NCBI GenBank assembly: GCA_033791845.1
Contig: JASJFX010000095.1
Span: 21,855 to 85,854, forward strand
Reading direction: 5' to 3'
Source: Lysobacterales bacterium
Lineage (GTDB): Bacteria; Pseudomonadota; Gammaproteobacteria; Xanthomonadales; SZUA-36
DNA: 64,000 bases
Shown: one piece after another, positions 3,557 through 45,698 of the stretch
Layout of the letters: every line of letters begins with the position of its first letter
Numbering within the stretch: position 1 is the stretch's first letter
Notes under the pieces: model-generated
What the model was told of the DNA's origin: nothing
The model's database searches: none
Seen by the model: the letters and a program-made list of their open reading frames with translations, nothing else
Made by a program: the position numbers and the translations under genes

Positions 3557-4273
3557 TCAATTTGACAATGCTGAAGACTGCGCTTCCATGAGTCCCCTGA
3601 TACCTTTGTCTGCCAATTCCAGCAGTTGGTCCAATTCATCCTTGCGGAACGCATGACCCTCTGCCGTACCCTGCAACTCGATAAATCCGCCACCATCATT
3701 CATCACAACATTCATATCTGTTTCCGCGCGGGAATCCTCGGGATAGTCAAGATCAAGCACGGGTGTGCTATTAAATATGCCGACAGAAACAGCGGCCACC
3801 TGGCCATGTACGGGGTCTTTTTTAATTTTATTATTGGAGAGCAGCCACCTGCAGGCATCAACCAGCGAGACATACGCACCGGTGATGGCTGCTGTTCGGG
3901 TTCCACCGTCTGCCTGCAATACATCGCAGTCCAGTGTGATCGTATGCTCGCCGAGGGCAACACGATCGACTACGGCCCGCAAAGACCTGCCAATAAGCCT
4001 TTGAATTTCCATGGTCCGTCCGCCCTGCTTACCGGAAGAGGCCTCACGGCGCATTCTCGAGCCTGTCGACCTTGGCAACATACCGTACTCTGCCGTGACC
4101 CAGCCTTCACCACTGCCTCTCAGAAACGGGGGCACCTTGCTTTCAACTGATGCGGTACACAAAACCCTGGTATTGCCGCAAGCAATCAGCACCGATCCCT
4201 CAGCATGACAAGTGTAATTGCGCAAAATGCTGACAGGGCGTAACTCATCTAATCGTCTACCACTGGGTCTCAT
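3557..4273 (-). CDS. rph: Ribonuclease PH
   Basis: The internal Met start gives [30 protein letters not shown]...[15 protein letters not shown]. This is the typical RNase PH length (~238 aa). The upstream 70 codons of the ORF have no homology-like features. Confidence 0.9.
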
Positions 4274-4396
4274 TGGCTGATCCTGTTTGTCTGGTCCAAA
4301 AAATACAGAGTTATTTATAAAGGTTTCTATTCTCAGATAGCCACCCCGCAGGCTAACCGGTAACATTGTGCCACTGTCTGCAAAGTGGAAAAAGCA

Positions 4397-5266
4397 ATGA
4401 TTCGAAGTATGACTGGTTTCGCGCGGGTTGAGCACCAATATGATTTTGGTCGCCTGAGCTGGGAAATGCGTTCTGTTAATCACCGCTATCTTGATTTTGG
4501 ACTTCGTCTGCCGGAAGAATTCCGACCACTGGAGTCTGGTATCAGAACCTGTCTTGGACAGTATTTGAGCCGTGGAAAAATCGAAGCCACGTTACGTTTT
4601 AACACGGAGCCAGGTGCCATCAGCAGTGCACTGCAGCTTAACCAGGGTCTGGCAAGAGAGCTTCTTAGGGTACATGGTGAAATCGCCCGACTGGCGGGGT
4701 TTGAGCAGCAGGCGGATATCAGCCGAATTCTCAAATGGCCTGGCCTGATCGAGGAAAGACGTCCTGACCCCGCACCGTTGCAAGCCGCAGCAATGGACTT
4801 GCTGGTCGAGGCGGCCAGGGAATTGCAGGCAGGGCGGGCACGTGAAGGCGAGCAGATGGCTAACGCCATCCGTGAGCGGCTGGCGGGAGTAGCGGCATTA
4901 ACGGCCAGGATCAGACATTGGCTGCCGGAAATCCGCGCCGGTCTGAGGCAAAAAATGCTGGAGCGTGTGGCTGATCTGAAACAACCGCTTGATCCGGGCC
5001 GGATTGAACAGGAAGTCGTTATCCTGAGCCAGAAAATTGACGTTGATGAAGAACTGGACAGGCTGGATGCGCATGTTGAGGAAGTTTACCGGGTACTGGA
5101 TCTGGAAGAGCCTGTTGGCCGCAGGCTGGATTTCCTGATGCAGGAGTTCAACCGCGAATCAAACACTCTCAGCTCAAAATCAATTGATCAACGTACCACG
5201 CAAGCCGCCGTGGACCTGAAAGTGCTTATAGAGCAAATGCGTGAGCAGGTACAGAATGTCGAGTAA
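4397..5266 (+). CDS. yicC: YicC family stress-induced protein
   Basis: N-terminus [10 protein letters not shown]-terminus [13 protein letters not shown]...[18 protein letters not shown]. It is divergent from rph, as in enterobacteria and pseudomonads. Confidence 0.85.
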
Positions 5267-5891
5267 CACTACTCAAAAAGGCAGTCTTTTTATTATTGCT
5301 GCACCGTCCGGTGGCGGAAAAACCAGCCTGGTAAACGCCCTGTTGAAGCATGACCCCCGGCTGGTACTTTCCATTTCCCATACCACCCGTTTGCCAAGAC
5401 CGGGTGAGATAGACGGTCAGCATTACCGTTTTGTTTCCGAAGCGGAATATGACCAAATGGTCAATGATGGCGACTTCATGGAGCACGCCCGGGTATTTGA
5501 TTACCACTATGGAACCAACCGGAATTCCGTGGCAATACAACTGGAACAGGATCGCGATGTCATACTCGAAATCGATTGGCAGGGCGCGCGCCAGGTGCGA
5601 AAAGCTTTTCCGGCATGTTGTCTGATTTTTATCATCCCCCCTTCCCTAGAAGTTTTGCGAAAAAGGCTGACCGGTCGCGGACAGGATAGCGAAAAAGTAA
5701 TACAACGAAGGATGCGGGACGCACAGGCCGAAATATCTCATTGGGCTGAATTCGATCACCTGGTCGTCAATGACAACTTTGATGCAGCACTTGAAGAACT
5801 GCGCTCAATCATCAATGATTACCGCAATCAACAACCGCATAAAGTAAATAAAAATCACCTGCTTCTGGCACAGCGGCTCGGAAGAAGTTAA
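5256..5891 (+). CDS. gmk: Guanylate kinase
   Basis: P-loop [10 protein letters not shown], then [22 protein letters not shown]. Confidence 0.9.
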
Positions 5892-5929
5892 AATTCACGG
5901 TTCCGTCTAACACATACACAGGATTTAAA

Positions 5930-6193
5930 ATGGCACGAATTACCGTAGAAGACTGCCTTGAGAACATCGACAACCGTTTTGAACTGGTTTTGACAGCAAC
6001 AAAACGCGCCCGGCAGATTGGCCATGGCGCCGAGCCGTTGGTCCAGGAAGAAAACGACAAACCCACCGTAATTGCTCTGCGCGAAATCGCGGAAGGCCTT
6101 ATCGATGCAGAGGGCGTGGATGTTCTCCAGGCTAAAATCGAAGCTGCCGAAGAGTTTGACATGAGCCCCATGGAGGACGATTTAGCCCCCTAA
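5930..6193 (+). CDS. rpoZ: DNA-directed RNA polymerase subunit omega
   Basis: [30 protein letters not shown]. Confidence 0.95.
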
Positions 6194-39984: not shown

Positions 39985-40166
39985 GCCTGCGATTTAAAGT
40001 TTTTGCGGATCAACACTTAAAGAAAAAATATAAAAAACAACTGGTGTGATTCATGTTGCGGTCGGGATTGCCCGCTTGCTGAAACATAAAATTGCTTGAA
40101 TACTATTCGCTTACGGTGACATACTCATCCTTACAGAGAAGTTACCTGACAAATGGGGAGGTCATT

Positions 40167-40865
40167 TTGGGTGCAATTCTGATCGGTATTCTTGAAGATG
40201 ATTTGGATCAGTCAGCGTTACTTGAGGTTTGGCTTGAAGACGCCGGATTCAAGACACGTGTGTTCGCCTCGGGTCCGGAATTCATACGCGCCGTTCAGCA
40301 GGAATGCTTCGATTTAATGCTGCTGGACTGGAACCTTCCTGAAATGAGTGGACTGGAGGTACTGGAATGGGTGCGTCACAATATCCAGAATCATATACCG
40401 GTACTTTTTCTGACCACCCGCGGGGAAGAACAGCATGTTGTGGCTGCACTTGAAGCCGGGGCTGATGACTACGTCAGTAAGCCGGCGCGCCCACAGGAAC
40501 TAGTGGCACGCATCCGTTCCCTGGCACGGCGTAGCGGTCTGGTTGAACCGGAACGCAGCAATATCGAAATCGATGGTTATTGTCTTGACCGGAAAGCCAT
40601 AACAATCAGCATGGATGGTCAGGACATCACCATGACACGACGGGAATTTGAACTCGCCTGGATGCTGTTCGATAACCTCGACAAGATCCTCTCCAGGGAA
40701 TACCTGCTCAGACACATCTGGAATATCGGTGCGGCAGTCAAGTCCCGCACCGTTGACACGCATATCAGTCGCGTGCGCAGCAAACTTAATCTCCGGCCCG
40801 AGAACGGCTGGCGACTTTCATCTGTTTATCATTACGGCTACCGATTGGAACAGGTTGACCGTTAA
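40167..40865 (+). CDS. OmpR/PhoB-family response regulator (REC + winged helix). A TTG start at 40167 behind GGGGAGG is preferred over the TTG at 40092
   Basis: ILEDDLD...LMLLDWNLPEMSG...DDYVSKP; winged-helix region TRREFELAWMLFDNLDKILSREYLL...RTVDTHISRVRSKL...GYRL. Confidence 0.85.
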   Translation: MGAILIGILEDDLDQSALLEVWLEDAGFKTRVFASGPEFIRAVQQECFDLMLLDWNLPEMSGLEVLEWVRHNIQNHIPVLFLTTRGEEQHVVAALEAGADDYVSKPARPQELVARIRSLARRSGLVEPERSNIEIDGYCLDRKAITISMDGQDITMTRREFELAWMLFDNLDKILSREYLLRHIWNIGAAVKSRTVDTHISRVRSKLNLRPENGWRLSSVYHYGYRLEQVDR

Positions 40866-40881
40866 GTCTCGAGGAAACACC

Positions 40882-41421
40882 ATGGCTACGAAAAAAGAAG
40901 ATACTGAACAAATCCAACCAGCACCTGACAATGTCGACCAAATACGTGAAATTCTGTTTGGTAACCAGATTCGCGCCGTCGACGAGCGTTTCGGGGCAGT
41001 CGAAAAACGAATGTCCAGGGAAAGCGAGAACCTGAGGAAGACACTCGAGAAACGCATTCACGAGTTGGAAAAACTGCTTGATCAATTCCGCGACAATGCG
41101 GGTGATCAACTCAATCGTGAGAGTGCAGAGCGTGACGCAAGCCTCAATGAAGTAACAAAATCGCTGGCAGCGTTTCGTCTCGACGCCGAGAATCAACTTG
41201 CCGAAATGCAGTCGGATTTCAATACCGAGATCAAGCAATTCCGGAAGGAGTTGCTCGCAGCACAGAATTCCCTGATGGCGGGTTTGGCCTCGCTGCAAGC
41301 ATCGCAAACTGAACGCTCCGATCAACTTGATGAAAGCAAGGTCGATCGCGGCGAGTTGGCGGGGTTTCTGTCAGACATTGCAAATCAACTGACACCCTCC
41401 AAAAAAAAGCGTAGTAAATAG
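40882..41421 (+). CDS. 179-aa acidic coiled-coil protein, unknown function
   Basis: ATG at 40882 sits behind GAGGAAA, 17 nt after the regulator's stop. The protein is rich in heptad-like E/K/L/Q sequence. Its N-terminal motif ILFGNQIRAVDERFGAVEKR recurs in the next gene product. The ORF-track N-terminal extension (40648-40881) overlaps the regulator gene and is rejected. Confidence 0.6.
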   Translation: MATKKEDTEQIQPAPDNVDQIREILFGNQIRAVDERFGAVEKRMSRESENLRKTLEKRIHELEKLLDQFRDNAGDQLNRESAERDASLNEVTKSLAAFRLDAENQLAEMQSDFNTEIKQFRKELLAAQNSLMAGLASLQASQTERSDQLDESKVDRGELAGFLSDIANQLTPSKKKRSK

Positions 41422-41451: not shown

Positions 41452-43356
41452 TTGACCACCGAAAAACAAACAGAAGAACAGCGCAAAGATGATCTGGAAC
41501 GACTCCAGAGGCTGCTGCTCGGGGACGATCACAGTCGTCTGAACCTGCTGGATAAAAGGGTATCGGATTTTGAAAGCCGCTCAAACGATGTTGCCGAAGT
41601 TCTACCGGACGCCTTTGAACGCATAGCCAACGATCCCGTGCTCGAAGCCGAGCTTGAAAAACCGATGATGCGTACCATCCGTGCATCAATCAAGCGTGAC
41701 GCACCGGCATTCGCGGAGTACCTGTTTCCCGTCATGGGCCCGGCCATTCGCCGAGCAGTCGCCGATGCGCTGAAATCACTGGTTCAACGTATCAACGTTG
41801 CCATGGAGAACAGTTTTACGATCAAGGGACTACGTTGGCGCCTGGAAGCAGCGCGCACCGGTGTGCCATTCGCGCAGATCGTTCTGCGCCACACAATGCG
41901 TTTTGCTGTACAGGAGGTTTTCCTGATCGCCCGCGACACAGGCCTGGTGCTGGCACACGCGCACCGCGATGAAAACCTGGTGCTGGATGAGGATGCGGTG
42001 GCAGCCATGCTGACTGCAATCCAGTCTTTTATTCAGGATTCGCTAGGTATGAGTTCAGACGATCCGCTTCGCAGTGCTGAATTGGGCAACCGGACCTTGT
42101 GGGTGATCAATGGGCCGGAGGCGATTTTAGCCTGTGTCATCAGTGGCTCTCCACCACGTGCCCTGCGTGACGAACTAATGGCACTGCTGGAATCCATCCA
42201 TGCACGCTATGGCGAGCGTTTCACTGAAAACAACGATACGTTTGCAAAAGACATCGGCCTGCGTGTGCTGATGCAACAATCACTGCGGGAAGAACTGGAT
42301 GATCAGCAGGCAGTCAGCAAGCGTGGTAAAGCATACATCTACTGGGCGATAGCAATTTCGCTGCTGATCGCCCTGGTGGCATGGAAATCGTGGCAGGAGT
42401 ACCAGCAGCGCGAGTTCGAATCCCGGGTCGTTGAGCTGTTCAAAAGCCAGCCGGGTTACGTTGTATCGTCTAGTCGCCGGCAAAACGGCATCCTGCTCAT
42501 CGATGGTTTGCGAGATCCGGGCACAGCCACACCCGTCAGCTTACTCAATGACCAGGGACTCACAGATCAGGGTCTTCAGTTTCGATTTAAACCTTTCCTG
42601 TCACTCGAGCCCGGCCTGACTTTGAAAAACCTGCGTACATCAATGGGGCTGACAGATTCCACAGGTCTCGCACTGAACGGCGGTACCCTGCTGGTTGATG
42701 GTGCTCTTAGCGGTAACCAGGCAGAGAGACTGACAAGACTGGCTGGCGTCCATCCGCTGATCAATGCTGTTGACCTATCCGGCACCAGTCTGAGCGGGGA
42801 AGAGGCGTTACAACTTGCCCGCATACAGCTCGGTGCACCTGACTCCGTGGAGATGACACCGGTCGATGGACGTATCGCGGTTTCCGGGAAATCAAGTGTT
42901 AGCTGGTATCTTGAAAAATCCGGAACCCCGCAGGTATTCGGCGGTTGGAAAGTCGATTTCGGACCCTTGCTCGGGGAGTTAAAGAACGCTGTGCGCACCA
43001 GCGTCGGCCAACTGGACGGTACTGAAGTTTTCTTCATGCAAAGGGATCGCCTGTCACCTGAATCCACGTTGACCCTCGATGCGTTTGCACAGCAGTTGTC
43101 AGGGTTGCAGAATGCTTCCACCCCTTTGGGTATTGACCTGACGATTACACTGGTTGGCCATGTTGATGGAATCGGTACCGCCCAACAGAATGAACAAACC
43201 TCCCGCAAACGCGTGAAAGTGGTGCGGGACAGCCTAATTAGCGCTGGTGTTGACCCGCAACATATCCAATCCGAGCATCCGGCCTGGAGTAGCGGCAATG
43301 AGAACCTTTCGCAACGCCGGGTTACGGTTCGGGTAACAGGGAAAGATCGCTCATGA
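41452..43356 (+). CDS. Bitopic inner-membrane protein: cytoplasmic Roadblock/LC7-like region, one TM, periplasmic BON-like repeats and an OmpA/MotB-like peptidoglycan-binding C-terminus (TTG start behind GAGG)
   Basis: aa ~150-255 VQEVFLIARDTGLVLAHAHRDE..DEDAVAAMLTAIQSFIQDSLG..LGNRTLWVINGPEAILACVISG (Roadblock-like pattern, judged by eye). TM at aa 293-312 (AYIYWAIAISLLIALVAW). BON-like segment GGTLLVDGALSGNQAERLTRLAGVHPLINAVDL. OmpA-like segment ITLVGHVDGIGTAQQNEQTSRKRVKVVRDSLISAGV...QRRVTVRV. Confidence 0.6.
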   Translation: MTTEKQTEEQRKDDLERLQRLLLGDDHSRLNLLDKRVSDFESRSNDVAEVLPDAFERIANDPVLEAELEKPMMRTIRASIKRDAPAFAEYLFPVMGPAIRRAVADALKSLVQRINVAMENSFTIKGLRWRLEAARTGVPFAQIVLRHTMRFAVQEVFLIARDTGLVLAHAHRDENLVLDEDAVAAMLTAIQSFIQDSLGMSSDDPLRSAELGNRTLWVINGPEAILACVISGSPPRALRDELMALLESIHARYGERFTENNDTFAKDIGLRVLMQQSLREELDDQQAVSKRGKAYIYWAIAISLLIALVAWKSWQEYQQREFESRVVELFKSQPGYVVSSSRRQNGILLIDGLRDPGTATPVSLLNDQGLTDQGLQFRFKPFLSLEPGLTLKNLRTSMGLTDSTGLALNGGTLLVDGALSGNQAERLTRLAGVHPLINAVDLSGTSLSGEEALQLARIQLGAPDSVEMTPVDGRIAVSGKSSVSWYLEKSGTPQVFGGWKVDFGPLLGELKNAVRTSVGQLDGTEVFFMQRDRLSPESTLTLDAFAQQLSGLQNASTPLGIDLTITLVGHVDGIGTAQQNEQTSRKRVKVVRDSLISAGVDPQHIQSEHPAWSSGNENLSQRRVTVRVTGKDRS

Positions 43357-43856
43357 GGACCGCCAAGGTGTGTATGGTCGGTGCTTTCGGGGTAGGCAAG
43401 ACCAGCCTTGTCCGGCGATACATTCACCAGCAATTCGACGAGTCTTACCACACGACCCTCGGGGTCAAAATTGATACGCGTGTCGTCGACAATATTGAGA
43501 AACCCATCAAGCTGGTGTTGTGGGACATGGAAGGCGCTGACCCGTTTGAGAAAGATAAACGTCCACTGGCACGTATCCGTAGCTATATGAAAGGTGCGCA
43601 TGGACTCATTCTGGTGGCTGATGGCACGCGCCCTGCAACCGTTAAAACCGCATTGGGTCTGTACCATGACTTTTGCCGGGAATTCCAATACGTGCCGGCC
43701 ATTATGCTGGCCAACAAGGCCGATCTCACGGCCGAGTGGCGATTTGACGACTCGGTTATGCCCGATGCCCTCACGCTTTACCATACCAGCGCGCTCAATG
43801 GCCAGAATATCGATGCCGCATTCACTGCGCTGGGCAAAGCATTGTCTGAGTTATGA
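43353..43856 (+). CDS. Ras/Rab-like small GTPase (prokaryotic Ras superfamily member)
   Basis: G1 GAFGVGKT (aa 10-17), switch I HTTLGV, G3 WDMEG followed by A rather than Q, G4 NKAD (aa 121-124), G5 SAL (aa 146-148). Alignable by eye along its length with eukaryotic Rab1/Ypt1. ATGA overlaps join it to both neighbouring genes. Confidence 0.8.
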   Translation: [167 protein letters not shown]

Positions 43857-45373
43857 AGAGAGTCAGCCAGAGAGCCGCCCATTACATCAGGGACGAATTA
43901 CTCAAGCGTGAGCACTTCATCGTGATAGCACTGGATGCACGACAGAACATTCTCTCAGTTAACCGCTCCACTCCCGACTGGAAGCTGCCCGGTCTGATCC
44001 GTGGTTCCGTTCTGCCCGATACGCTTAGTTCATTGCTTGGTGCTGCCGTCGGGAGTGACGATCCGGTCGTGTTTTCTTATGTTGAGTTTGAAGGATATTT
44101 CGTAGACATACATGTACTTGGCAATGAAGCGTCTGCCGACCTCGTTTTACATGACGTAACAGAGGCACATGAACAGGAGCAAACCCTACAACAGCGGGCC
44201 CATGAGAATAGCCTGTTGTCTGAACAACGTGCGGCACTCAACTCGGAACTCGCAGAGCTCAACCAGGAGTTATTCTTGCGGCGTCAACAGGCTGAAAAGG
44301 CGAGTACCGCCAAAAGCCGTTTTATCGCCTCCATGTCCCATGAGTTTCGCTCACCCATTGCCTCCATCATGGGGTATGCCGATCTGTTGCGGACCGAATT
44401 ACCTGATTCGGAAAACCCACTAGCCCTGCAGCGGGCATCGTGGCACTTACTGACCCTGGTGGAAAATCTGCTCGAACAGGCCCGCGAAGGCGATGAGAGC
44501 GTGAAACTCAACCCGACCCGCTTCAGCCTCGACCGCCTGGTGGACGACATCGATGCCTTGTTTCGAACACAAGCAACCGCGAAAGCTCTTGATCTTGAAA
44601 CAAGATCATCACCGGGGAAAATCGAGGTCGAGTGTGATGAACTGCGGCTCCGGCAGATACTGATCAACCTGGTCAGCAATGCCTTGCGATATACGCAACA
44701 AGGCCAGATCAGTGTTCACGTCAAACACCATGAAGACAAGCTTTACATTCGAGTGCGTGACTCGGGTCAGGGTATCGCAGCCGAGGACATTGAGAGAATA
44801 TTTGAACCATTCACGCGGGTTGGTGAAAGTAACACCTCGGGTGCGGGCCTGGGGCTCACGATAACACGCCAGTTGATCAATCGCATGGGTGGAAAGCTCA
44901 AAGTCGAGAGCAAACCAGGCGTCGGCAGCGAGTTTCGAGCAGATATTCCGTGCCCGAGGGCACAGGATGAACATAAGGAGCCACCCCAACTGGCCGGAAC
45001 CCTGCTTTGGGTAGATGATGATCAGGATATCCTGTCTCTTTACCAACTGATGCTTGAGGGTTGGGGTTTACACGTGCTAACTGCCAGTAGTGTCACCCAG
45101 GCAAAGGACATGATAAACCGCCACAATTTTCCGGTTGTCGTAACGGACATGCATTTGACGGATGGCGACGGACTCGAGTTATTCAACTACTTCAAAACGA
45201 CACAGCCCGATATCGTGGGTATCATAATTTCCGGTTCCGGTTTCGTTGACCTGCCACTGGAGGCCGCCGCTAGCGGGATTCGTGCTTTTTTGCAAAAACC
45301 ATTGGATGCGGATGTACTTTATACCGAGATTGCTGCAGCATTTGCCGGAGGTTCACCTGGTCAATCTGTCTGA
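43853..45373 (+). CDS. Soluble hybrid sensor histidine kinase (N-terminal PAS-like region, coiled coil, HisKA, HATPase_c, REC)
   Basis: H-box SMSHEFRSPIASIMGY, N-box LINLVSNALRYT, G-boxes VRDSGQGI and GAGLGLTI. Receiver: LLWVDDDQD...VVVTDMHLTDGDG...FLQKPL. No TM segments are present. Confidence 0.88.
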   Translation: MKRVSQRAAHYIRDELLKREHFIVIALDARQNILSVNRSTPDWKLPGLIRGSVLPDTLSSLLGAAVGSDDPVVFSYVEFEGYFVDIHVLGNEASADLVLHDVTEAHEQEQTLQQRAHENSLLSEQRAALNSELAELNQELFLRRQQAEKASTAKSRFIASMSHEFRSPIASIMGYADLLRTELPDSENPLALQRASWHLLTLVENLLEQAREGDESVKLNPTRFSLDRLVDDIDALFRTQATAKALDLETRSSPGKIEVECDELRLRQILINLVSNALRYTQQGQISVHVKHHEDKLYIRVRDSGQGIAAEDIERIFEPFTRVGESNTSGAGLGLTITRQLINRMGGKLKVESKPGVGSEFRADIPCPRAQDEHKEPPQLAGTLLWVDDDQDILSLYQLMLEGWGLHVLTASSVTQAKDMINRHNFPVVVTDMHLTDGDGLELFNYFKTTQPDIVGIIISGSGFVDLPLEAAASGIRAFLQKPLDADVLYTEIAAAFAGGSPGQSV

Positions 45374-45698
45374 ACAAGCACAAAAACTGATTGCCAAACA
45401 GCGGCGCCGGTATATTGAAAGCATGCCTGACAAGCGCGAGGTGATCTACCAGTGCATGGCACAAGTCAGCAACGCAGTGAGCAGCGGAGAAGGGGGTCTG
45501 TGCGACAAGCTCTTCCAACAGGTCCACCACCTGGCGGGGTCTGCAGGTAGTTACGGTTTTGAATCTCTGGGTGAGGCAGCCTCGGTTGTAGATCGCTATC
45601 TTATCGCCAATTCACCCAGGGTAATTGATTTGCCAGAATTGGAGTCTCTGCTTCAAAATTTGCTCGACGAGATTGATGACATCATCCAAAAAAGCTGA
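45306..45698 (+). CDS. Hpt (histidine phosphotransfer) protein; start codon unresolved
   Basis: Hpt motif FQQVHHLAGSAGSYGFESLGEAA. The in-frame ATGs at 45306/45312 overlap the kinase 3' end. The next ATG (45423) would truncate helix 1. GGAGG at 45347-45351 is followed only by CTG at 45357. Confidence 0.65.
   Translation: MRMYFIPRLLQHLPEVHLVNLSEQAQKLIAKQRRRYIESMPDKREVIYQCMAQVSNAVSSGEGGLCDKLFQQVHHLAGSAGSYGFESLGEAASVVDRYLIANSPRVIDLPELESLLQNLLDEIDDIIQKS

Follow-up and report, generated by a model that had tools for sequence, protein, structure and literature searches.

How can a Ras-like GTPase that lacks its catalytic glutamine be turned off, and what does it control? This question is raised by a gene at positions 43353..43856 (forward strand, as are all features described here) of a 64,000-nucleotide stretch of DNA from a Lysobacterales bacterium (GenBank assembly GCA_033791845.1, contig JASJFX010000095.1, positions 21,855 to 85,854), hereafter called the window. 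The gene encodes a small GTPase of 167 amino acids (aa) which we assign to the Rab/Ras-like Group 1 Rup (Rup1) family on the basis of its open reading frame, Pfam and HMMER searches and gene neighbourhood, and which is called Rup below. Our best explanation, held with moderate confidence, is that Rup is a Rup1 switch in a six-gene module, in which the hybrid histidine kinase encoded directly downstream would act as both effector and GTPase-activating protein (GAP), and the membrane protein DUFX:OmpA (DUFX) encoded directly upstream would act as platform. The gain lies in narrowing the two parts of the question to a single domain (residues 1-146 of the kinase), the single residue Gln114 and a predicted interface; it is the definition of partner and residue that is new, rather than the kind of system, and the missing glutamine itself was already known.

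The open reading frame at 43353-43856 is complete, with an ATG startcodon and a TGA stopcodon, and residues 5-164 of its product match Pfam Ras (E 2.1e-21). The best relatives of solved structure are human Rab1B and Rab1A (E 2.5e-16, residues 5-161), which bears out the collinearity with Rab1/Ypt1 that the initial annotation had noted by eye. In the HMMER alignment, which is without gaps from residue 5 to 63, the Rup sequence WDMEGAD lies opposite WDTAGQE of Rab1B, with Ala62 at the position of the catalytic glutamine, and Rab1B is then gapped by four and two residues opposite switch II of Rup, which is thus six residues longer. The same annotation had noted the alanine in the G3 sequence WDMEGA, about six extra residues in switch II and the absence of a C-terminal lipidation motif, and all three hold: the region of G3 and switch II (Trp57-Tyr78, 43521..43586) contains WDMEG, Ala62 and the extended switch II with the conserved pattern DP..DKRPL.RI, while the C-terminus (...ALSEL) has no cysteine, Cys7 and Cys108 being the only ones in the protein. 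The P-loop (G1) reads GAFGVGKT (43380..43403, read directly from the translation) and has Phe12 at the position of Ras Gly12; the further motifs are Thr35 (G2), WDMEG (G3), NKAD (G4, residues 121-124) and SAL (G5, residues 146-148), and all nucleotide- and Mg-binding motifs are intact, Thr35 and Asp58 included. Rup comprises a complete G domain of the Ras superfamily, in which alanine replaces the catalytic glutamine and phenylalanine occupies the Gly12 position.

The Rup match is far above chance: one search gave 1870 homologues at E <= 1e-5, an exhaustive search gave 13760 at E <= 1e-3, and more than 591 homologues were found in reference genomes of many phyla. Relatives from Mesorhizobium, Nostoc, Anabaena and Nitrospira match at E about 1e-38, versus 2.5e-16 for Rab1B, and these genera are given as carriers of Group 1 Rup in the comparative genomics study which defined this system (Wuichet & Sogaard-Andersen, Genome Biol Evol 7:57; PMC4316618). 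The defining neighbourhood in that study (Table S2) consists of DUFY (a coiled-coil protein), DUFX:OmpA and Rup in this order, followed by a signalling output, and the order of DUFY, DUFX and Rup in the window agrees with it. Similarly, the protein studied here is a single-domain GTPase (150-240 aa in the class) with Ras-type G1-G5 motifs and the aspartate of G3 (DxxG), it has no glutamine after the G3 glycine (a position occupied by Gln in only 13/271 relatives), it adjoins an output protein, the hybrid kinase, with an invariant glutamine in the N-terminal region, and it comes from the Gammaproteobacteria, which are among the many phyla and classes with such systems. Membership of the Rup1 family is therefore almost certain. 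The absence of the glutamine after DxxG was published in 2014/15, together with the proposal that a glutamine is provided in trans, possibly by an invariant glutamine that lies N-terminally in the output protein (PMC4316618); the missing glutamine is confirmed here, and both it and the idea of a trans-acting one had already been published. The initial annotation had declared that it would fall if the protein grouped firmly within an already characterised bacterial family with a known mechanism, and this applies by half, as Group 1 Rup has been catalogued but not biochemically characterised. The family contains the bacterial GTPases closest to the eukaryotic Rab, Ras, Rho and Ran proteins, and has been proposed as the source of these (PMC4316618; bioRxiv 10.1101/2024.02.28.582541). 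Only a single copy of Rup was found in the source genome, with no paralogues in the 2.48 Mb of this assembly (78% complete).

Within the family, this Rup differs from most members by having alanine rather than the commoner glutamate or aspartate after DxxG, and by its conserved six-residue insertion in switch II. Among the 271 relatives in which the motif could be parsed, DxxG is followed by Glu in 100 cases, by Ala in 79, by Asp in 19, and by Thr and Gln in 13 each, and in a less redundant subset Glu occurs 118 times at this position, Asp 23 times, Ala 13 times and Gln 12 times. The spacer between the G3 glycine and the conserved tyrosine, which is 10 residues in 178/271 relatives, is 16 residues in this Rup, and spacers of 16-17 residues were found in 80 sequences, all of them close relatives. 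All insertion-bearing rows (22/22) form one clade (SH-aLRT 97) in a maximum likelihood tree of 227 Rup-like sequences, which was built without MglA, Rup2 and eukaryotic outgroups, and the insertion is strongly conserved in the 68 members of this subclade (Asp63 67/68, Pro64 68/68, Lys69 60/68, Arg70 64/68, Arg74 67/68). Because of these residue counts and spacer lengths, the single clade and the conservation of the insertion, Ala62 and the longer switch II are, as judged from sequence, a signature of one subclade inside Rup1 and not a family-wide property. The Gly12 position, on which the initial annotation did not comment, is occupied by Phe in 267/348 relatives and by Tyr in another 23. The arginine fingers of GAPs are obstructed in Ras by side chains at position 12, and by analogy a GAP of the canonical Arg-finger type is hence unlikely to act on Rup.

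The partner that compensates for the missing glutamine is most likely the sensor kinase encoded directly downstream (43853..45373). This is a soluble hybrid kinase, consisting of a PAS-like Rup-partner domain, a signalling helix, HisKA (with His163; Pfam 1e-11), HATPase_c (6.8e-31) and a receiver domain (Response_reg, 4.8e-17). It has no transmembrane segment (the maximum 19-residue Kyte-Doolittle mean of 1.53 is below transmembrane level), and no sensor domain other than the N-terminal module was found among its Pfam matches. This module (residues 1-146, 43853..44290) matches no Pfam or NCBIfam family; its AlphaFold2 model (mean predicted local distance difference test score, pLDDT, 93.6) contains a small alpha/beta domain (residues ~20-102) and a long helix (103-145, ~40 residues) that bears Gln114 (codon CAG at 44192..44194, checked; motif QQ.A[NHY]E). 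In a wide comparison with VIA all of the top 50 matches of the domain were PAS domains, including 3a0v_A (Z 8.9, root mean square deviation (rmsd) 2.5 A, 81 residues aligned) and 2pr5_A (Z 8.2, rmsd 3.2, 104 aligned), where Z values of 8-9 are moderately above background, and PAS_7 clusters are among the feature neighbours of this domain in the Atlas, at 0.93. No Pfam PAS match was obtained from the sequence of residues ~20-102, and it is by its modelled structure that this is a PAS-like domain. A Roadblock fold, which had been expected from the order of secondary structure elements (alpha-beta-beta-alpha-beta-beta-beta), was rejected for this domain, as both Foldseek and VIA gave PAS, with the longin protein SEDL at rank 30 in Foldseek.

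An iterated profile found this partner domain of ~105 residues in 46 of the 77 genes directly downstream of Rup. It occurs as a stand-alone protein of 127-140 aa in Nostoc-type cyanobacteria, and is elsewhere fused to an adenylate/guanylate cyclase, a hybrid kinase, an HD domain of the HD-GYP type or a sigma-54 AAA+ activator. Only Gln114 is invariant in this domain, being present in 47/47 sequences and throughout the 38-sequence alignment used for modelling (A2), and this reproduces the "invariant glutamine" of PMC4316618; the adjacent position 115 varies between K, R, Q and A, and there is no conserved arginine there. Both domains also occur in a single 304-aa protein (P0266), with a Rup domain at residues 1-167 and the PAS-like domain at 195-297 with the QQ motif retained, although this could be a merger of two gene calls. 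As an observation in its own right, P0266 has the form of a Rosetta-stone style fusion of Rup and its modelled partner. Two further fusions, of Rup to a kinase (P0245) and to HD-GYP (P0248), were not accepted as proof of the partner domain, since the PAS-like profile misses their linkers of ~180 residues, and these count as Rup-output fusions only. The partner domain of the window also has peculiarities of its own, with Asn37-Arg38 (within 43853-43970) instead of the Gly-Gly of 40-42/47 relatives, and, in this subclade, one residue fewer in the loop before strand 82-90; both may represent co-adaptation with the switch II insertion.

The complex of Rup (alignment A1) with GTP and Mg and kinase residues 1-146 (alignment A2) was modelled in three runs and with three controls. 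The ipSAE score was 0.90 in each of the three runs and 0.00 in the best of the controls; the calibration mark for this score is reached by 58/80 solved complexes and 2/110 mismatched pairs, counts which are only roughly valid here because of the use of our own alignments and the inclusion of GTP and Mg. The runs share at least 97% of their contacts, and the pLDDT of the partner is at least 84. On the Rup side the modelled interface consists of the P-loop (residues 12-13), switch I and beta2 (32-42) and switch II with the insertion (57-81), with insertion residues 63, 65, 67-68 and 74 inside it, and on the kinase side of helix 56-66, strand 72-79, which pairs with beta2 of Rup in the fashion of Ras effectors, and helix 106-124. 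Of all residue pairs, Thr34-Gln114 is placed with the smallest expected error, the other pairs at the low end being Thr34-His117, Phe12-His117, Tyr32-Gln114 and Gly13-His117. In the model Gln114 contacts Tyr32, His33 and Thr34 of Rup, and is placed over the phosphate-binding pocket, against the P-loop and switch I. The interface is more conserved than the remainder of either protein (p 0.00025 for Rup with the G motifs excluded, p 0.004 for the partner). No comparable complex of a PAS domain and a GTPase with a solved structure is known to us, and it thus seems unlikely, albeit not provable, that the model reproduces a structure seen in training. Taken with the conserved neighbourhood, we consider it likely that Rup binds the N-terminal domain of the kinase, whereas a catalytic action of Gln114 on the GTP of Rup is possible, at somewhat below an even chance. 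The obligate co-encoded partner predicted by the initial annotation has thus gained a conserved neighbourhood, an invariant glutamine on the downstream protein and a controlled complex model in its favour, and catalysis in trans is the part of that prediction which is still something we infer.

On the other side of Rup lies the gene for DUFX (41452..43356), a bitopic membrane protein of 634 aa with a Pfam OmpA match at residues 529-607. Its N-terminal 300 residues are kept beside Rup in 72/80 related loci. ATGA overlaps are present at both ends of the Rup gene, with the stopcodon of the upstream and the startcodon of the downstream gene, and the DUFX, Rup and kinase genes are therefore translationally coupled. 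The predicted layout of DUFX is a cytoplasmic part (residues 1-293) with a helical region and a longin/Roadblock-like domain (~148-282, 41893..42297), a single transmembrane helix (294-311, 42331..42384; top 19-residue Kyte-Doolittle mean of 1.79 at residue 292, with a helix modelled at 285-299, where the folded fragment ends), and a periplasmic part which ends in an OmpA-like peptidoglycan-binding domain (526-608, 43027..43275; Pfam OmpA 2.7e-6 and NCBIfam OmpA-family models). Residues 1-300 have no match to a Pfam or NCBIfam family, and the Atlas neighbours of DUFX are all annotated as "hypothetical protein". In the AlphaFold2 model of this fragment (mean pLDDT 81.7) helices precede an alpha-beta-beta-alpha-beta-beta-beta-alpha unit at ~148-282, and the Foldseek top 50 consisted entirely of Roadblock/longin proteins (TRAPP, Ragulator, MglB, Mon1-Ccz1 and a Streptomyces Roadblock protein; E 1.9e-4 to 2.5e-3). 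A second look at residues 148-282 with VIA gave the longin domain of VAMP7 (4afi_A; Z 13.0, rmsd 2.6 A, 118 residues aligned), Trs23 (2j3t_D; Z 12.8, 2.7 A, 124), Fuzzy (Z 12.3, 3.0 A, 124), Mon1-Ccz1 (Z 11.4, 3.1 A, 130) and MglB (3t1s; Z 10.3, 2.6 A, 105), and by its model this part of DUFX has the longin/Roadblock fold. At the level of sequence, membership of Pfam Robl_LC7 is unsupported, as only 1/52 DUFX members gave a match, and a weak one (E 0.0057). The published statement that there is no coupling between Rup and homologues of MglB (PMC4316618) is true gene by gene, and the predicted fold of a GTPase regulator is nevertheless present inside DUFX. We tentatively see DUFX as an exchange platform for Rup, a role to which we would give a little less than an even chance.

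The mechanism that we propose starts with DUFX, which would be anchored to peptidoglycan in the periplasm and whose cytoplasmic longin/Roadblock-like domain would dock Rup or exchange its nucleotide, thus loading or releasing it, so that the state of the cell wall and periplasm would be coupled to Rup via the DUFX platform. Rup-GTP would then dock onto the PAS-like domain of the kinase via switch I/beta2, the P-loop and the enlarged switch II, and this docking would act on the signalling helix leading into the kinase core, and thereby set the flux from kinase via Hpt to the OmpR-type regulator. Gln114 on the same helix could position the attacking water in trans, which would make the kinase effector as well as GAP, with the effector ending the signal. 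In the subclade studied here, Ala62 and the six-residue insertion in switch II would make hydrolysis fully dependent on the partner, and the interface larger. A bolder version, which we regard as doubtful, is that the Rup1 module is a bacterial counterpart of eukaryotic Rab logic: a longin platform in an envelope-anchored protein would load the GTPase, a PAS-like domain would both signal to interchangeable outputs (kinase, cyclase, HD-GYP or sigma-54 activator) and provide the catalytic glutamine (an unprecedented GAP fold), and in this subclade Ala62, Phe12 and the insertion would make the switch wholly partner-operated.

Several points weigh against this mechanism. No biochemical or genetic data on any Group 1 Rup system were present in the searched literature, where searches for Rup, the published locus tags and Ras-like GTPase/longin/histidine kinase gave the defining paper and phylogeny papers only. 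The partner domain was undetected in 31 of the 77 downstream genes, and the complex model, as a prediction only, supports binding but does not show it. The Gln114 helix probably doubles as a dimeric signalling helix, and there could be a structural reason for the invariance of Gln114. The longin/Roadblock fold of DUFX could, by analogy with MglB, be that of a GAP rather than an exchange platform, and the combination of Phe12 and Ala62 resembles hydrolysis-blocking substitutions in Ras, which is just as compatible with a GTPase without any hydrolysis. The last point is the basis of an alternative which we consider rather unlikely, in which Rup is a hydrolysis-dead adaptor, either permanently GTP-bound or nucleotide-sensing, which is switched by sequestration and release by DUFX or by the level of GTP, with Gln114 being a binding hot spot. 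Substitutions at Gly12 or Gln61 of Ras block both intrinsic and GAP-stimulated hydrolysis, and Rnd and RhoH are atypical GTPases of this kind, so that there are precedents for a protein with alanine at the Gln61 position and a bulky phenylalanine at the Gly12 position; the absence of any conserved arginine near Gln114 of the partner would also fit. However, a single glutamine that is invariant across phyla and in five types of output, including the stand-alone form, exceeds what is usually needed for a binding contact, it is modelled beside the P-loop and switch I rather than peripherally, and the motifs for nucleotide and Mg are intact in Rup down to Thr35 and Asp58.

The two other alternatives move catalysis to a different protein or part of the protein. 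If the longin/Roadblock-like domain of DUFX were an MglB-like GAP that reshapes the active site, the N-terminal domain of the kinase would be a pure effector. Residues 148-282 do match MglB as well as other GTPase-regulating Roadblock/longin proteins, and DUFX is the most consistent neighbour of Rup, to which it is translationally coupled, but the folds nearest to it (Z 11-13) are longin domains from exchange factors and from SNAREs rather than MglB. Furthermore, MglB works by positioning a glutamine and an arginine which are intrinsic to MglA (PMC4316618), whereas Rup has no glutamine at that place, and this alternative is considered unlikely. It is less probable still, and in our view very unlikely, that the switch II insertion gives Rup its catalytic groups in cis, for instance with Lys69/Arg70 or with Arg74 as a finger, which would make it a self-sufficient GTPase. 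The intrinsic arginine fingers of MglA (PMC4316618) are a precedent for this, and the strong constraint on the insertion in the 68 subclade members would be accounted for; yet position 62 is alanine and no water-orienting residue replaces the glutamine, the conservation is explained without catalysis by residues 63, 65, 67-68 and 74 lying in the modelled kinase interface, and the kinase retains Gln114 in the insertion subclade too (in the window and in its closest genomic relative, L001).

With the kinase as candidate effector-GAP and DUFX as candidate platform, the Rup module can be set beside better known systems. Partners supplying a water-positioning amide where the cis glutamine is absent or displaced are known from RapGAP and TBC proteins. 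Rap1-RapGAP (Asn thumb) and Rab-TBC (Gln and Arg fingers) are cited as precedents in PMC4316618, and the resemblance to Rup lies in this amide; the difference is that the candidate donor here is a glutamine on the helix following a modelled PAS-like domain, which is an unrelated fold, and that no conserved arginine finger was seen. Compared with Rab1/Ypt1, Rup shares the collinear region 5-161, the G1, G2, G4 and G5 motifs, and the sequences YxxTxGV and GAHG, but it lacks the catalytic glutamine and the prenylation cysteines, has phenylalanine at the Gly12 position and a longer switch II, and is a soluble bacterial protein encoded in a two-component operon. Relatives of Rup are labelled "Rab family GTPase" at NCBI, and neither the glutamine of WDTAGQE nor the C-terminal cysteines expected of a Rab are present in Rup. 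The MglA-MglB pair and the actinobacterial conservon (CvnA-D / Mfp) also combine small GTPases with Roadblock-fold regulators, and the conservon includes a histidine kinase as well (PMC4316618); Rup appears to be wired likewise. MglA differs by a G3 motif without aspartate (TVPGQ/GTPGQ) and an insertion between G1 and G2, whereas Rup has WDMEG with Asp58 and no such insertion, and the predicted Roadblock/longin fold is located here within the membrane protein DUFX, with no separate MglB gene and no Pfam Robl_LC7 match among the neighbouring proteins of Rup. Roco (Roc-COR) proteins are distinguished by size and score, as Rup is a 167-aa single-domain protein and its Pfam Roc match (3.3e-18) is weaker than that to Ras.

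DUFX is like the longin-type Rab exchange factors (TRAPP, Mon1-Ccz1 and Fuzzy-Inturned) in that its modelled residues 148-282 superpose on these and the gene adjoins that of a Rab-like GTPase. It differs in having no detectable sequence similarity to them and in being a single such domain in a predicted peptidoglycan-anchored bitopic protein. No folds are assigned to DUFX or the N-terminal domain of the output protein in the accessible part of PMC4316618, which is where the predicted longin/Roadblock-like and PAS-like folds differ from the description of Group 1 Rup given there. If both proposed roles are true, that is a PAS-like effector-GAP and a longin exchange platform in DUFX, this would show how bacteria couple the cell wall to transcription and second messengers via a Ras-like switch, and the partnership between longin domains and Rab-like GTPases would then reach back to bacteria.

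A further difference from the published Group 1 Rup systems is that the module in the window is embedded in a complete phosphorelay of hybrid kinase, Hpt and OmpR-type regulator, and we think it fairly probable that Rup is the central switch of a six-gene module signalling from envelope to transcription. The first of the six genes (40092..40865) encodes an OmpR-type response regulator with receiver and winged-helix domains (Pfam Response_reg 1.4e-27, Trans_reg_C 2.8e-19), which is the probable end of the phosphorelay, and of which the true startcodon may be downstream of the listed TTG. It is followed by the first conserved gene of the Rup neighbourhood, DUFY (40882..41421, with an ATG at 40882), which encodes a 179-aa coiled-coil protein with weak matches to coiled-coil-type Pfam families, and of which a homologue is present upstream of Rup in 67/80 related loci. 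The last gene (45306..45698) encodes the Hpt phosphotransfer protein (Pfam Hpt 7.2e-9), with an uncertain start at ATG 45306 or 45312. Its reading frame (45246-45698) opens within the region encoding the receiver domain of the kinase, and since these are the only two ATG codons that would give a full Hpt domain, there is an out-of-frame overlap of ~62-68 nucleotides with the end of the kinase gene (45373).

The regulator is also found upstream of the module in the gammaproteobacterial loci L001, L031, L061 and L073 (E 1e-60 to 1e-146), and L001, where Rup is 82% identical to that of the window, has an Hpt homologue after the kinase. In L031, L061 and L073 the OmpR-type regulator upstream and a hybrid kinase downstream recur although their Rup proteins are without the insertion, which suggests that the six-gene phosphorelay layout is older than the subclade with Ala62 and the insertion. 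In L001 the DUFX gene is split into two open reading frames (4098-5066 and 5150-6004), and this may be a genuine split or come from a frameshift or a sequencing error. One frame of 965 aa in L075 (5695-8592) runs through an OmpA tail, a Rup domain cut short at residue ~136, HisKA, HATPase, receiver and Hpt; it could be a fusion of the whole module, and was not used as evidence of fusion in view of a possible assembly or frame artefact. Finally, G domains of the Rup type (~30-43% identity to this Rup) were found fused behind Ser/Thr kinase domains, TIR and EAD11 (P0144, P0223, P0141, P0179, P0123, P0169, P0234), and the same set includes proteins with two or three G domains in tandem; the TIR and EAD11 fusions hint at a role of these Rup-like domains in conflict or defence rather than in envelope signalling.

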